A model generated the notes under the pieces. It was not told the DNA's origin, did not search any database, and saw only the letters and a list, made by a program, of their open reading frames with translations. From NCBI RefSeq assembly GCF_050920415.1, contig NZ_CP169309.1: 64,000 nucleotides of DNA, one strand, 5' to 3'. A program made the position numbers and the translations under genes. Origin of the DNA: Escherichia coli (lineage in GTDB: Bacteria > Pseudomonadota > Gammaproteobacteria > Enterobacterales > Enterobacteriaceae). Numbering within the stretch: the first letter of the stretch is position 1; the number at the start of each line of letters is the position of its first letter. Positions 133-24,571 of this stretch are shown here, one piece after another.

Positions 133-3100
133 TTATTTCCGTACCCGATGTCGGTGCAGCCACATCAGCTTATACGCCGCCGGGATAATAAACAGCGACA
201 GCAAAGGTGCGGTGATCATGCCGCCAATCATCGGCGCGGCAATCCGGCTCATCACCTCTGAACCTGCCCCCGTTCCCCACAGAATCGGCAGCAGACCCGC
301 GATAATCACCGCCACAGTCATCGCTTTCGGGCGCACACGCAGCACCGCGCCGTGATATAACGCTTCATCCAGCTTCTGCTCGCTGAATGTTTGCGGATTA
401 TCCAGGGATGGCTCTGCCTCTATGGCGTGACGTAAATACATCAGCATCACCACGCCAAATTCGGCGGCGACTCCCGCGAGGGCGATAAAGCCAGTGCCCG
501 TTGCCACGGAAAGATGAAAGTCCATCCACCACAGTAACCAGATGCCACCCACCAGCGCAAACGGTACGCTGCTGATAATCAGCAACGCTTCGCCCACCCG
601 ACGGAACGCCAGATACAACAGCACGAAGATGATCATCAACGTCATCGGCACCATGAGTTTCAGCTTGTGGTTGGCACGCTCCAGCAACTCGAACTGCCCG
701 GAGAATGCCACGCTGGTACCCGGTTTTAACTGCACTTTTTCAGCTATCGCTTTTTGCAAATCGTGAACTACCGACACCATGTCACGATCGCGGGCATCGA
801 TATAAATCCAGCTTGTCGGGCGCGCATTCTCGGTTTTCAGCATCGACGGTCCGGTAGAGACTTTAACGTCGGCCACATCCGCCAGGGTGATTTGCTGCTT
901 CATCGGCGTCAGGATCGGTAGCTGGCGCAGCGCCTGTGGGCTATCGCGCCAGCTTTGCGGATAACGCAGATTAATTGGATAACGGGCAATCCCTTCCACC
1001 GTTTCACCAACCATCGCCCCGCCCACCGCAGATGTCACAAACAACTGCACATCCGCCACCGTCATACCGTAACGGGCGGCTTTTTCACGGTTGATCTCAA
1101 CGTTGATATAGCGCCCACCTTCCAGACGTTCAGCAAGGGCTGAGGCCACGCCTGGCACCGTTCGCGCCACTTCTTCAATTTGCTCCGCCATCGCGTCGAT
1201 ATCCGCCAGCACAGTGCCGGAAACTTTAATGCCGATAGGGCTTTTAATGCCGGTCGAGAGCATATCGATACGGTTACGGATTGGCGGCACCCACAGATTC
1301 GCCAGCCCCGGCAGACGCACGGTGTTATCCAGTTCCTCAATAATTTTTTCCATGGTCATGCCAGGCCGCCACTGATCCTGTGGCTTAAGCTGGATGGTCG
1401 TTTCTACCATCTCCAGCGGTGCGGAGTCGGTGGCGGTTTCCGCTTTCCCGGTTTTGCCAAACACCCGCGCCACTTCAGGTACGCTCATAATCAGCTTGTC
1501 GGTTTTTTGCAGCATACTCGCCGCCTCCGCTGCGGAAATCCCCGGCAGTGTCGATGGCATATACAACAAGTCGCCTTCATTGATCTGCGGTAAAAATTCT
1601 CCGCCAACTTTATTGAGCGGCCAGAGAACCGTCAGTACCGAAAGCGCCGCCACCAACAGCGTGGTTTTAGGCCAGTGCAGTACTTTCAGCAACAGCGGAT
1701 GATAAACACGAATCAAAAAGCGATTGAGCGGATTACTGCTTTCCGGTGGAATTTTTCCACGGATCCAGTAGCCCATCAGGATGGGGATCACTACGATCGC
1801 CAGCAGCGCCGCGCCCGCCATCGCATACGTTTTGGTGAACGCCAGCGGGCCAAACAGACGCCCTTCCTGCCCTTCCAGAGTGAAGATCGGGATAAACGAC
1901 AGCGTGATAATCAGCAAGCTGATAAACAGCGCCGGCCCCACTTCAACAGATGCATCGGTGATCACCTGCCAGCGCGTTTTATTATCCAGCGTGGCGTCAG
2001 GATGCTGGTGCTGCCACTCTTCCAGCCGTTTATGCGCATTCTCGATCATGACGATAGCGGCATCGACCATCGCCCCGACGGCAATCGCAATACCGCCCAG
2101 CGACATAATATTGGCATTCAGTCCCTGGAAGTGCATGACAATAAAAGCAATACACAACCCCAGCGGCAACGAAATAATCGCCACCAGCGCCGAGCGCACA
2201 TGCCAGAGAAACAGCGCGCAGACAACCGCCACCACAATAAACTCTTCCAGCAACTTGCCGCTGAGGTTGTCGATGGCTCGGTCAATAAGCTGGCTGCGAT
2301 CGTATGTTGTAACTATCTCCACGCCTTCCGGCAGACTGCTTTTCAGCGTTTCCAGTTTGTCCTTCACGGCGGCGATCACTTCACGGGCGTTTTTGCCGGA
2401 GCGCAGGATCACCACCCCGCCCGCCACTTCGCCTTCACCATTGAGTTCGGCAATGCCCCGGCGCATCTCCGGGCCAATCTGGACCTTCGCAACATCACGC
2501 AGATAAACGGGCACGCCATTTTCGCTGGCTTTTAAAACGATGTGATTAAAGTCGTCGAGCGTTTGCAGATAGCCGCTGGCGCGCACCATATATTCCGCTT
2601 CCGCCAGTTCGATCGACGAACCGCCCGCTTCCTGGTTTGAAGCATCCAGCGCATTTTTCACTTCGGCGAGACTGATGCCATACTGCGCCAGGCGCTGAGG
2701 ATCGATAACCACCTGATACTCTTTCACCACACCGCCCACCGACGCCACTTCCGCAACGTCAGGGATGGTTTTCAGCTCATATTTGAGAAACCAGTCCTGC
2801 AATGAACGTAAATCGGCCAGATCGTGCTTACCGCTGCGATCCACCAGCGCGTATTCATAGATCCAGCCAACACCCGTGGCATCTGGCCCCAACTCGGCGC
2901 TGACTCCCGCAGGCAGCTTACCCTGTACCTGGTTGAGGTACTCCAGCACCCGCGAGCGCGCCCAGTACGGATCGGTGCCATCTTCGAAAATGACATATAC
3001 ATAAGAGTCGCCAAACTGCGAGAAACCGCGCACAGTCTTCGCGCCAGGTACTGACAACATGGTGGTGGTTAGCGGATAAGTCACCTGATTTTCAACGATT

Positions 3101-20996: not shown

Positions 20997-21018
20997 TTTC
21001 AAAATATTCCGCTATTTG

Positions 21019-21066
21019 CTCCCAATGCAAAACATATATTGCATTGGGAGCATATTCATATTTTTG
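21019..21066 (+). terminator. Candidate intrinsic terminator after the hydrolase gene
   Basis: Perfect 12-bp stem CTCCCAATGCAA / TTGCATTGGGAG with 8-nt loop, T-run 10 nt downstream. Confidence 0.4.
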
Positions 21067-21179
21067 TTATTATTGTATGAAATCGTCTCATGTACACGGT
21101 CCTTTTTTCGCCGAAAACTGATATTACTTTAATCAAAAGTTGACGTGCCAGATTCGAAGTAAATTTATAAAATATCAAA

Positions 21180-21485
21180 TCAATATACATTTTGCACCTT
21201 CGAGATAGTAATGACTGTTACTGTAACATGAGTTACAAACAGCTTCATACCCAGAGCTACTGATGTATCAACTCGATTCAACAATACCCGATATTTATTC
21301 CATGCCTCCAGCAACGATCTTTCTTCCTCCGTTGCGATTTCCAGATCTACAGCATCCTGCAGTGGCGCAATATACTCACTGAATTCCTGGATGTAGAACT
21401 GTGTGGTGACGGTCTTCCAGCCATTCGGCTCCTGCTGTATCGAAGCATACCAGGCTATTTCAATATCGCTATGCTGCGGCAGCAT
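21180..21485 (-). pseudogene. tfaX: Tail fibre assembly protein remnant (tfaX-like, C-terminal part only)
   Basis: 101-aa ORF whose middle ([38 protein letters not shown]) matches the C-terminus of the intact Tfa at 23996-24571; N-terminus unrelated. Confidence 0.7.
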
Positions 21486-21541
21486 TTAACCCCTTGTAAT
21501 TCATCGCCATAATTGATTTAATTCACAAATAAAACTATAAC

Positions 21542-22210
21542 ATGGTGAAATTAATGAAAAAAAACACAGATGATGGGGCTAAAATTTACACACCACTTAC
21601 CCTAAAGCTTTATGACTGGTGGGTTTTGGGAGTATCAAATCGGCTTGCATGGGGATGTCCTACAAAGGAACACCTTCTTCCACACTTTCTGGAACATTTA
21701 GGTAACAACCATCTGGATATTGGTGTTGGAACTGGGTTTTACCTTACTCACGTACCTGAGAGTAGTCTGATATCTTTAATGGATTTGAACGAAGCTAGCC
21801 TGAACGCGGCATCTACAAGGGCTGGGGAATCAAAAATTAAACATAAAATTAACCATGATGTTTTTGAACCTTATCCCGCGGCGTTACATGGTCAATTTGA
21901 TTCCATTTCCATGTTTTACCTTCTTCACTGCCTGCCTGGAAATATATCTACAAAAAGCTGTGTAATACGCAATGCGGCGCAGGCCTTAACTGACGATGGA
22001 ACTCTATACGGAGCCACAATTCTTGGCGATGGAGTTGTGCACAATAGCTTCGGTCAAAAACTGATGCGCATTTACAATCAGAAAGGCATCTTTTCAAACA
22101 CAAAAGATTCCGAAGAAGGCTTAACACATATACTCTCAGAGCATTTCGAGAATGTTAAAACCAAGGTTCAAGGTACTGTAGTAATGTTTTCCGCTTCAGG
22201 GAAAAAATAG
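21542..22210 (+). CDS. Class I SAM-dependent methyltransferase (ybcY-like)
   Basis: 222-aa ORF with SAM-binding motif I (LDIGVGTGFY); sits between two tfa homologues as ybcY does in DLP12. Confidence 0.6.
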   Translation: MVKLMKKNTDDGAKIYTPLTLKLYDWWVLGVSNRLAWGCPTKEHLLPHFLEHLGNNHLDIGVGTGFYLTHVPESSLISLMDLNEASLNAASTRAGESKIKHKINHDVFEPYPAALHGQFDSISMFYLLHCLPGNISTKSCVIRNAAQALTDDGTLYGATILGDGVVHNSFGQKLMRIYNQKGIFSNTKDSEEGLTHILSEHFENVKTKVQGTVVMFSASGKK

Positions 22211-22575
22211 CATCCAACCGCAGCACGTTCTTGCATAAGGCGTGTCTGCGGTTTTTCAACTATTCAGATACATCACTCCCATCACATTCATTCCTCCGCA
22301 TCATAGGCATATAGGCTATATCACCTTGATATTTTTCTTCTTCAGATAAAAACTGTTATCTATGTATACTTTTAAACCCAATCCGTGTAGAGTCTCTGCA
22401 TAAGATAGTTTGCAGTTGCCACTTCAGCTTGCGCCATAAACCGCCTGATTTTTGCCGCCACCTGTTAGCATTCCTGTATACCTGAAACGACAATGTTTAT
22501 CTACGAACTTTAAGAACACCCAGGATAAAAATTGTCAACTATATCATATATAACACATTACTAATTCGAGGCTAT

Positions 22576-22689
22576 ATGAACAGCATACTGATAATCACTT
22601 CTCTCCTTATCATATTCAGCATTTTTAGTCATGCCCTAATAAAATTAGGGATTGGCATATCCAATAACCCAGACAAAACCGATGTATAA
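22576..22689 (+). CDS. Candidate 37-aa hydrophobic membrane peptide ([37 protein letters not shown])
   Basis: Hand-translated small ORF with GAGG 4 nt upstream of the ATG; single predicted TM helix plus polar tail; AT-rich context. Confidence 0.3.
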
Positions 22690-22724
22690 GTCAACATATC
22701 CTGAATCAGACATACAATATCGCA

Positions 22725-22991
22725 ATGAAAATCAATAATATTTTAAGGAATATCTTCATGAAATCAAAAGACACCCTAAAGTGGTTCCCTGCGCAGCTTC
22801 CTGAAGTAAGAATTATCCTAGGGGATGCTGTAGTGGAAGTAGCAAAACAGGGAAGACCTATCAATACCAGAACATTGCTTGATTACATTGAAGGAAACAT
22901 AAAGAAAAAATCATGGCTGGATAACAAAGAATTATTACAAACAGCGATATCAGTTCTTAAAGACAACCAAAATTTAAATGGTAAAATGTAA
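22725..22991 (+). CDS. Hypothetical 88-aa protein
   Basis: Open frame in AT-rich cargo DNA upstream of the recombinase; no recognised domain. Confidence 0.35.
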   Translation: MKINNILRNIFMKSKDTLKWFPAQLPEVRIILGDAVVEVAKQGRPINTRTLLDYIEGNIKKKSWLDNKELLQTAISVLKDNQNLNGKM

Positions 22992-23307
22992 TATAATAAA
23001 CTTACTTTTTTATCATTTTTCCACTTTAACAACATTTTGCTCCACTTTTCCACGATCAAACAACTTGAAATCTGGTTAAAATAACACGCAACACTATTCT
23101 TCTTCCTTGAGTCCGCCCGGAACTCGAAAAACAAACCGAGTTAAAGCCATTTTTCACAAAATCGATTTTGGGTCTCACCAAAATTACGGGGTTGCATACG
23201 CATTCGTTTATTTTCGAACGTGTACATACAAATATGCACAAAAATAATCAAAATTATTTTCTGAGATGCATTATGATATGAACACCAATTTCGTATAGAG
23301 TCTCACT

Positions 23308-23898
23308 ATGTCTCGAATTTTTGCTTACTGTCGGATATCAACGCTGGATCAGACCATCGAAAATCAACGCCGGGAAATCGAAAGTGCAGGTTTTAAAATC
23401 AAACCTCAGCAAATAATCGAAGAACACATTAGCGGCTCAGCAGCAACCAGTGAGCGTCCTGGTTTTAACCGGTTGCTTGCTCGCCTGAAATGTGGTGATC
23501 AATTGATTGTGACAAAACTGGATCGCCTTGGTTGTAATGCAATGGATATCAGGAAAACAGTGGAACAACTGACCGAAACAGGTATCAGAGTGCATTGCTT
23601 AGCATTGGGGGGCATTGACCTGACCAGTCCAACAGGAAAAATGATGATGCACGTAATTTCAGCAGTCGCTGAATTTGAACGAGACCTTTTACTTGAACGC
23701 ACTCATTCCGGGATAGTAAGAGCCCGCGGCGCAGGGAAACGTTTTGGTCGACCACCTGTGTTAAATGAAGAACAGAAACAGGTGGTATTCGAACGAATTA
23801 AGTCAGGTGTAAGTATAAGTGCCATTGCCCGGGAATTCAAAACCTCGCGGCAAACCATTTTAAGAGCCAAAGCAAAACTTCAGACACCTGACATATAA
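23308..23898 (+). CDS. Small serine recombinase (resolvase/invertase family)
   Basis: 196-aa ORF; N-terminal catalytic motif YCRISTLDQ (Ser nucleophile), resolvase-type core and C-terminal HTH. Confidence 0.85.
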
Positions 23899-23995
23899 AA
23901 AATAATCTCGGTGTGAGATGCTTTACGTCTTCCAAGCCCCCTTCCTTGCCGTAAATGGAAAGATACATCTAATTATAGAATTTATATGTTTTACC

Positions 23996-24571
23996 CTACG
24001 GCAGTGCTGGCCATTCAATATCCTGTGCAGTTGACGTATCAACACGGTTCAGCAACACCCGATACTTTTTCCAGGCTTCCAGCAATGAGGTTTCTTCCTC
24101 CGTTGCGATTTCCAGATCTACAGCATCCTGAAGTGGCGCAATATGCTCACTGGCTACCTGCATCAGGCTGTTTTTTGTTTCTTCCGCCTCTCGGATCCGG
24201 AACAGTTTTTCTGCTTCTGCATCTTTCACCCAGGCTGTGCCGTTCCACTTCTGAAACTCCCCTTCCGGCGATAACCAGGTAACATTTTCCGGTAACGGAC
24301 CGAGTTCAGAAATAAATAACGCGTCCCCTGACGCTACGTCATAAACCGTTTTACCCCGATGGTCTTCAACGAGATGCCACGATGCCTTATCACTGTTGAA
24401 AACAGCCACAAAGCCAGCAGGAATATCTGGTGGTGCAATATCGGTACTGTTTGCTGGCAGACCTGTATGAGGCGGAATATATGCGTCACCTTCACCAATA
24501 AATTCATTAGTTCCGGCCAGCAGATTATAAATTTTTATGGTCCGTGGTTGTTCACTCATTCTGAATGCCAT
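23996..24571 (-). CDS. tfa: Tail fibre assembly protein Tfa
   Basis: 191-aa ORF immediately downstream of stf; lambda Tfa-like. Confidence 0.9.

Follow-up and report, generated by a model that had tools for sequence, protein, structure and literature searches.

What does a short open reading frame (ORF) for a hydrophobic peptide encode when it lies in AT-rich prophage DNA beside a second, longer ORF, and do the two belong together? Such a pair occupies positions 22576–22991 of the Escherichia coli DNA stretch analysed here (64,000 nucleotides in all, hereafter termed the window). The initial annotation likened the 37-amino-acid product of the first ORF to type I toxins or small membrane proteins, and saw no recognised domain in the adjacent 88-amino-acid ORF. 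Both ORFs are in fact already known and named E. coli prophage genes, which had thus been correctly rediscovered. The description of the surrounding DNA as AT-rich likewise agrees with its composition, since positions 22211–23307 have a GC content of 35.6% against 50.1% for the whole window.

Identity and extent of the two genes

The two genes and their translation signals are as follows.

22576–22689, plus strand: ynaM/ynfT, encoding a 37-amino-acid single-pass small membrane protein; assigned by PF23676, NF041477 and identity to K-12
22568–22571, plus strand: Shine-Dalgarno sequence GAGG of ynaM, read from the sequence and followed by a 4 nt spacer (CTAT) and the ATG
22758–22991, plus strand: ydfK, a paralogue of ynaE, encoding a 77-amino-acid cold-induced cytoplasmic protein whose predicted helical model has the YmgB/AriR fold
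22745–22749, plus strand: Shine-Dalgarno sequence AAGGA of ydfK, read from the sequence, 8 nt before the ATG; GAGGA in Salmonella
22725–22757, plus strand: spurious 11-codon N-terminal extension that produces the 88-amino-acid ORF; there is no Shine-Dalgarno sequence before 22725, the RefSeq start is 22758, and the intact mass fits the shorter form

The 37-amino-acid peptide is identical to the K-12 proteins YnaM (b4744, in Rac) and YnfT (b4748, in Qin), the latter named YnfQ in an earlier study (VanOrsdel, 2018). The likeness to these copies extends from all 37 of 37 residues to the Shine-Dalgarno sequence, the downstream ynaE/ydfK gene and the pin-tfa-stf neighbours. The Pfam model PF23676 (YnaM) covers residues 1–37 of 37 and scores 96.2 bits against a cut-off of 27, and the NCBIfam model NF041477 (YnaM/YnfT family) scores 63.9 bits against a cut-off of 35. 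The PHROG family matched by YnaM carries no assigned function, and YnfT was listed as uncharacterised in 2024. The family is narrow: when 1.84 billion cluster representatives were searched exhaustively with phmmer, only four clusters emerged.

Several features indicate that this ORF is a gene. Over its most hydrophobic 19 residues the Kyte-Doolittle hydropathy reaches 2.52, as befits one transmembrane helix, and the polar tail SNNPDKTDV follows; the architecture first described, one helix plus a short polar tail, therefore stands. The GAGG reported as correctly spaced is present, and Salmonella (GAGG-ATAT-ATG) and a metagenome locus, L019 (GGAG-AGTGA-GTG), retain both the Shine-Dalgarno sequence and its spacing; in L019 the start codon is GTG rather than ATG, in an unchanged frame; its spacing of 4 nt, however, lies at the short end of the usual range. 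An ORF of 25–60 amino acids with a Shine-Dalgarno sequence and a transmembrane-like stretch appeared in 1.4% of 2000 Markov simulations of the AT-rich stretch, indicating that the 37-amino-acid ORF is real and more than a product of chance.

Published work on K-12 supplies direct evidence for translation. Both copies were SPA-tagged on the chromosome and their proteins were detected by immunoblot, and both were also positives in a tetracycline ribosome-profiling screen (VanOrsdel, 2018). The level of YnaM was above that of most new small proteins, although no start-codon peak was seen with retapamulin or Onc112 (Weaver, 2019). We infer that the missing peak reflects reads that map equally well to both identical copies; other studies have set the two-copy gene pair aside owing to non-unique read mapping. 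In ordinary LB, tagged YnaM accumulates to comparatively high levels in both growing and stationary cells.

The coding sequences of both genes are under strong purifying selection, with dN/dS values of 0.05–0.09. For ynaM the ratio is 0.05 in the comparison with phage 2H10 and 0.09 in that with Salmonella, where 14 differences are synonymous and 8 non-synonymous, and where the differences at the three codon positions number 4, 4 and 14. Against L019 the synonymous sites are saturated (pS 0.85) and pN is 0.16. The core of YnaM (SLLIIFSI...) is invariant across the three lineages. Translation and conservation, on whose absence the initial annotation would have given up its proposal, are thus both on record, the former in K-12 and the latter in related prophages and phages. 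Its alternative of a small membrane protein was the right one, given the identity with YnaM/YnfT, the single predicted transmembrane helix and the translation observed in K-12.

The second ORF required a correction of its start. An 88-amino-acid ORF does exist at 22725–22991, but its first 11 codons lie outside the gene, and the true product is the 77-amino-acid protein that begins at 22758, as indicated by the RefSeq start, the AAGGA sequence and the intact mass. Specifically, the calculated monoisotopic mass of the 77-amino-acid form is 8772.80 Da and that of the 88-amino-acid form is 10129.6 Da, whereas top-down mass spectrometry of E. coli BL21 colonies gave 8772.78 Da for intact YdfK. The agreement between calculated and measured values identifies the 77-amino-acid form with its initiator methionine retained.

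Nor is this protein without a recognised family. The product encoded in the window is 99–100% identical to proteins named cold shock protein YdfK, it matches phrog_2718 (E = 1.8e-47), and precomputed Pfam labels assign PF27475 (YnaE) to its close homologues. A Pfam profile search of the window gave no match for YdfK, the copy used being older than PF27475, and the statement that no domain was recognised is now outdated. In substance the protein does not differ from the known YdfK/YnaE proteins (b1544/b1375; PF27475, phrog_2718). Intact YdfK has been seen after refrigeration, and the protein was pulled down at 16 °C and not at 37 °C.

Distribution and linkage of ynaM and ydfK

The copy in the window sits in a lambdoid prophage that adjoins ompT-envY-ybcH according to the RefSeq annotation, a position that DLP12 occupies in K-12. 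The gene lom is close by in this prophage. Two further features define the module's surroundings.

22690–22757, plus strand: spacer of 68 nt between ynaM and ydfK with no terminator-like site; 74 nt in Salmonella and 32 nt in L019
23308–23898, plus strand: pin-type serine invertase (Pfam Resolvase, E = 2.5e-36, and HTH_7), given for context only

K-12 carries the pair twice, as ynaM (b4744) with ynaE (b1375) at the end of Rac and as ynfT (b4748) with ydfK (b1544) at the end of Qin, and both copies adjoin the pin invertase and tfa/stf genes. The window, E. coli M8, both K-12 prophages (Rac and Qin), mEp460 and 2H10 agree in this order: ynaM directly precedes ydfK/ynaE in the same orientation, and the pair sits at a lambdoid prophage end. 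In Rac, Qin, mEp460 and 2H10 the module is consistently followed on its right by the invertase gene. In mEp460 and 2H10, which are viable phages, the module lies between the invertase and int/attP, and thus in the accessory b-region. Unlike the Rac and Qin copies of K-12, that in the window carries an inserted class I SAM methyltransferase gene and an inserted tfa fragment ahead of the conserved block. A search for Pin crossover sites (AAACCNNGGTTT) found nothing above chance near the module.

The module is widespread in the species. A 601 bp query across both ORFs found matches in 2806 of 5426 complete E. coli genomes, with 2638 records of this block at 99% identity or above, and the module is often present in two or three copies per genome. 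RefSeq names the products in the matched genomes ‘YnaM/YnfT family protein’ and ‘cold shock protein YdfK’. The region is best explained as the known two-gene accessory (‘moron’) module of lambdoid phages, ynaM(ynfT)-ydfK(ynaE), whose place is the b-region, with the pin invertase on one side and the prophage end on the other.

Linkage of the two genes extends beyond E. coli. Wherever YdfK is at least 67% identical, ynaM precedes ydfK by 32–74 nt in the same orientation. These lineages comprise E. coli prophages and phages (2H10, mEp460), Salmonella phage 118970_sal3, a Salmonella prophage and L019. The flanks are wholly different, with P2/Mu-type tail genes around the module in the Salmonella prophage and an IS element and dinI in L019, and the pair has nevertheless been kept together in three diverged lineages separated by a dS of about 1 and beyond. 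YdfK relatives of 55–64% identity (Enterobacter, E. coli, Limnobaculum), by comparison, are encoded without YnaM, and most of them have a divergently oriented gene for YnfU in its place. YnaM is therefore a conserved partner of only the closest relatives of YdfK, and the existence of relatives at or below 64% identity without it shows that YdfK does not need YnaM.

This last observation also fits a different reading, in which YnaM is a phage membrane effector unrelated to YdfK, acting for example in superinfection exclusion or the blocking of entry, and in which the adjacency merely reflects packing of the b-region. The gene does lie in an accessory region of viable temperate phages and is expressed in lysogens, and other lambdoid morons encode envelope proteins, with lom near at hand here. 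However, no PADLOC model resembles YnaM, the PHROG family that it matches has no assigned function, and the two genes have stayed adjacent while their flanks turned over from pin in E. coli to tail genes in Salmonella and an IS element in L019. We consider an unrelated effector rather unlikely, and discuss YnaM below as a partner of YdfK.

Transcription of the module and the leader RNA

Four candidate signals on the plus strand bear on how the module might be expressed.

22216–22257, plus strand: hairpin (core stem CCGCAG...CUGCGG) followed by a U-tract and resembling an intrinsic terminator, from folding and conservation
22341–22370, plus strand: candidate sigma-70 promoter TTCAGA-18-TATACT, with 9 of 12 matches in the promoter scan
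22691–22718, plus strand: TCAACA-16-TACAAT, a promoter-like site of the spacer whose conservation is limited to E. coli phages
22734–22741, plus strand: AATAATAT, a near-match to the Hfq motif AAYAAYAA, kept as AACAATAT in Salmonella

The hairpin at 22216–22257 forms the left edge of the conserved block and begins 6 nt after the stop codon of the methyltransferase gene. It has a folding energy of -22.3 kcal/mol (z = -4.7), and none of 200 shuffled sequences folds as well. Rac, Qin, mEp460 and 2H10 all share this element, and the loci diverge upstream of it. The terminator scan missed the hairpin because its loop is too large. The hairpin has the appearance of an insulator that would stop read-through from entering the module.

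Downstream of this element, both hexamers of the candidate promoter TTCAGA-18-TATACT are invariant in 2H10, Qin and mEp460, and the region is not conserved in Salmonella. If used, this promoter would generate a leader of approximately 200 nt ahead of ynaM. The promoter-like site between the genes makes separate transcription of ydfK possible in the E. coli copies. Promoters for ydfK and ynaE published from gSELEX fall beyond the conserved block, at distances of about 1 kb and 0.7 kb on the upstream side of the small ORF, and are thus uninformative. Repeats upstream of ynaM were also considered and set aside. These consist of three copies of GATAAA..TGT and a 13 nt inverted repeat (22490–22502/22523–22535), whose hairpin loses strength in 2H10 through uncompensated changes and does not occur in Salmonella.

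Two papers report, with reference to earlier work (Raghavan, 2011), that transcripts from the 5′ leaders of ynaE and ydfK terminate prematurely and that these leader RNAs co-precipitate with Hfq. Most of the interval ahead of ydfK is taken up by ynaM, so that the ‘5′ leader’ RNA described for ynaE/ydfK probably corresponds to the ynaM mRNA. Such an identity would explain why YnaM is plentiful at 37 °C and YdfK appears after refrigeration or at 16 °C. On the plus strand, C is richer than G from the leader to the ydfK start (C/G 1.2–3.0); this excess and the near-match to the Hfq motif are weak hints only.

A counterpoint to such termination is that the terminator scan and RNAalifold found neither an intrinsic terminator nor a conserved RNA structure between ynaM and ydfK, the RNAalifold consensus amounting to -5.7 kcal/mol with no convincing covariation and the single-sequence z-score to -1.8. 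An Rfam search of the plus strand gave no match to the cspA thermoregulator or to any leader family. The module resembles cspA-type cold-shock mRNAs in having a cold-induced downstream gene and a leader for which truncated transcripts are reported, but differs from them in that it has no Rfam match and no conserved structure, and in that its ‘leader’ encodes a conserved protein.

These properties also bear on whether ynaM might be a mere regulatory upstream ORF or leader peptide that controls ydfK, with no function for the peptide itself. The ORF lies directly upstream of a cold-regulated gene, in a region first described as a regulatory leader with truncated transcripts, and in the single-sequence minimum free energy fold its codons pair with the Shine-Dalgarno region of ydfK. 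We rejected this long-range pairing as a control device because it is not conserved, in keeping with the weak RNAalifold consensus. Moreover, purifying selection acts strongly on the whole peptide while synonymous sites are free or saturated, the YnaM core does not vary across three lineages, and the tagged peptide is stable and comparatively abundant. A purely regulatory ORF is thus quite improbable, and a functional YnaM peptide is the reading that we retain.

The proposal that YnaM is a type I toxin, a membrane-damaging peptide that an antisense or divergent small RNA would restrain, calls for an RNA as well as a peptide. The peptide has the expected form, being a small single-pass product (37 amino acids, below 60; hydropathy 2.52) encoded on a mobile element, and it shares with the enterobacterial type I toxins (Hok, Ldr, Ibs, TisB, ShoB, Zor, DinQ) a short one-helix architecture on mobile DNA. 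Its NCBIfam likeness to PepG1 is, however, very weak (E = 0.055; 13.1 bits, the cut-off being 70), neither Pfam nor NCBIfam gave a match to the families Hok, Ldr, Ibs, TisB, ShoB or Zor, and PADLOC reported nothing. YnaM-SPA accumulates freely in LB, unlike tightly repressed type I toxins, and strict conservation of the acidic or neutral C-terminal tail suggests a specific partner.

Two sequence elements could be taken for traces of an antitoxin RNA. On the minus strand, the conserved upstream hairpin resembles the 3′ end of the Shigella sRNA CssrB, and a 19 nt direct repeat (22345–22363/22524–22542) is so arranged that minus-strand RNA from its upstream copy would be 84% complementary to the ynaM leader. 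The CssrB match (minus strand, 22219–22356) reaches only 28.5 bits against an Rfam threshold of 76 and is confined to the terminator hairpin; CssrB was rejected as an antitoxin on these grounds and also because it comes from a different Shigella locus. For the direct repeat, we estimate that chance alone would yield about 0.3 equally good repeats in the region. No minus-strand promoter-like site occurs near 22360–22400, no RNA gene is annotated beside either K-12 copy, and the promoter and terminator scans and RNAalifold found no antisense promoter-terminator unit or conserved RNA structure at the locus. The resemblance to type I toxins that was first proposed is consequently not borne out, and we regard a toxin as very unlikely.

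Finally, AT-rich DNA gives many short ORFs (62 of at least 20 amino acids overlap positions 21000–24500), but the view that the 37-amino-acid ORF is one of these chance ORFs and no gene is already refuted by its 1.4% frequency in simulation, the family models matched above their cut-offs, the protein detected in K-12 and the dN/dS values of 0.05–0.09. We therefore return to YnaM as a small membrane protein linked to YdfK.

The fold of YdfK and a possible signalling role

To what host function might such a pair be connected? The AlphaFold2 model of YdfK, built from 17 homologues, is moderately confident (pLDDT 74) and consists of a disordered N-terminus of 14 residues, a helix at residues 15–30 and a long helix at residues 37–75. 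This model corresponds to the fold of YmgB (PDB 2OXL), the same structure that Foldseek returned as its top match. Judged by the model, YdfK probably has the AriR/YmgB fold.

Comparisons of sequence are compatible with this assignment but weaker. The NCBIfam model YcgZ_fam matches YdfK with an E value of 0.012 and 15.9 bits against a cut-off of 80. Alignment by hhalign gave a probability of 50% with the three K-12 paralogues YcgZ, YmgA and AriR/YmgB, and of 71% with a 17-sequence PF10798 profile (E = 3.8e-5, 41 columns; aligned segment LGDAVVEVAKQGRPINTRTLL). None of the 17 members of the YdfK family matched in a PF10798 search, and a sequence search of the PDB with the YdfK profile yielded a chance match only. 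The hhalign result suggests a remote homology of YdfK to PF10798 and nothing closer. As the sequence scores stay below the family thresholds, the link between YdfK and AriR/YmgB is a lead and not family membership; a literature search found no paper linking YdfK to the AriR fold.

The YcgZ-YmgA-AriR(YmgB) proteins are reportedly induced by cold and blue light, as described by Tschowri and colleagues. YcgZ, YmgA and AriR/YmgB are small connector proteins that have been implicated in activating the Rcs phosphorelay, reportedly by way of RcsC, and SpoT is a direct binding partner of YmgB. An over-expression screen of the ASKA collection offers a further point of contact. Among approximately 40,000 clones, expression of ytfK-lacZ was reduced by only seven genes, and both ydfK and ycgZ belonged to this set, although neither was re-tested by the authors of the screen. 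YdfK differs from the YcgZ-YmgA-AriR(YmgB) group (PF10798; 2OXL) in that its sequence likeness falls below every family threshold, with no Pfam match, and in that it is phage-borne and has a disordered N-terminus of 14 residues. By analogy with these proteins, YdfK would most likely be a small ‘connector’ that binds a host signalling protein rather than DNA or RNA.

A working model can be assembled from these elements. In the lysogen, a promoter of its own would drive the module, and the terminator hairpin upstream would keep out read-through from elsewhere. Transcription would mostly end after ynaM at 37 °C, and the resulting short RNAs would constitute the Hfq-bound leader, such that YnaM would be made without YdfK. 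In the cold, read-through or stabilisation of the mRNA would add YdfK. YnaM itself may be a small inner-membrane modulator, possibly of the pathway in which YdfK acts, and would not be a toxin. Taken jointly, these steps describe a cold-gated module that combines an AriR-like connector with a membrane modulator, which we put forward tentatively as a possible rather than a probable arrangement. The most far-reaching form of the proposal is a phage-borne, temperature-gated signalling module, in which a constitutive, Hfq-bound short mRNA yields YnaM, read-through in the cold yields YdfK, and the two proteins, one at the membrane and the other in the cytoplasm, together retune a host pathway such as Rcs or SpoT. 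We think it doubtful that the system works in exactly this manner.

A Shine-Dalgarno sequence ahead of a small ORF with a transmembrane-like stretch served here as a sufficient basis for picking real small proteins from sequence alone. If the signalling model is true, the module would act in about half of all E. coli strains, and the ‘non-coding leader’ of 2011 would be a protein-coding mRNA with a second, regulatory role. Three leads, namely the probable AriR/YmgB fold of YdfK, the partnership of YnaM with the closest YdfK relatives and the probable identity of the leader with the ynaM message, together offer a testable proposition on how a prophage might tune host stress signalling in the cold.

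The left edge of the ynaM-ydfK module

The ynaM-ydfK block encodes a 37-aa small membrane protein and a 77-aa cold-induced protein, and its left boundary and flanking DNA carry the following features.

22216..22257, strong, conserved hairpin with a U-tract, left boundary of the module
21542..22210 (+), class I SAM-dependent methyltransferase gene (phrog_2132, E 2.7e-156)
21259..21462 (-), degraded copy of the Rfam RNA IS009 (RF02111), 107.7 bits (gathering score 117), within the tfa fragment 21180..21485
24030..24228 (-), full-length IS009 match, 226.7 bits against the gathering score of 117, within a tail-fibre assembly gene

Read on the minus strand, the boundary hairpin is similar to the one at the 3′ end of CssrB, a Shigella sRNA, with an Rfam score below threshold. 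Because of this resemblance, a minus-strand transcript may end at this site. The methyltransferase gene, which is also a weak match to PADLOC mad2 (E 7e-4), is inserted just 5′ of the block in the window and in E. coli M8. Among the loci compared, it is absent upstream of the block in the K-12 prophages Rac and Qin and in the lambdoid phages mEp460 and 2H10.

Repeats and a putative Hfq site around the two genes

Several short sequence elements were located near ynaM, ydfK and the neighbouring serine invertase gene pin.

22376..22396 and 23284..23304, 21-nt direct repeat, copies ACCCAATCCGTGTAGAGTCTC and ACCAATTTCGTATAGAGTCTC
22344..22356 (+), 22490..22502 (reverse complement) and 22523..22535 (+), three copies of (A/G)GATAAA[AC]A[CT]TGT, 5′ of ynaM
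22734..22741, AATAATAT, imperfect match to the Hfq motif AAYAAYAA, 3 nt 5′ of the ydfK SD

The pin start codon lies 4 nt past the end of the second direct repeat copy. The triple motif may be a protein-binding site. Its third copy is partly retained in Salmonella, as GATAAAAAACTGT. Copies 2 and 3 together form a hairpin, which 2H10 does not conserve. Salmonella also carries AACAATAT in the position of the Hfq-like sequence. Hfq binding has been reported for the leader RNAs of ydfK and its paralogue ynaE.

YdfK relatives and their neighbourhoods

In three Salmonella prophage loci (L002, at 2143..2765, L003 and L004), ynaM is preceded by a divergent second YnaE-like gene, whose 70-aa product is 29% identical to YdfK, and by an ORF of 137 aa that begins like a lipoprotein. 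This arrangement points to a larger accessory operon there. YnaM is absent beside distant YdfK homologues (55-64% identity; L005-L007, L016-L018 and L008-L009). Of these, L016 and L017 from E. coli, as well as the Limnobaculum loci, contain a YnfU gene (PF23499) in divergent orientation. In Enterobacter and E. coli, the distant homologue gene adjoins a large gene encoding 2860 aa. The Pfam domains of this neighbour (GH94 and Glycoamylase) point to a cyclic beta-1,2-glucan synthase.

In an ASKA over-expression screen, only seven genes lowered ytfK-lacZ expression, and both ydfK and ycgZ were among them (PMC8600398). This shared outcome agrees with the similarity of the modelled YdfK fold to those of the small connector proteins YmgB and YcgZ.
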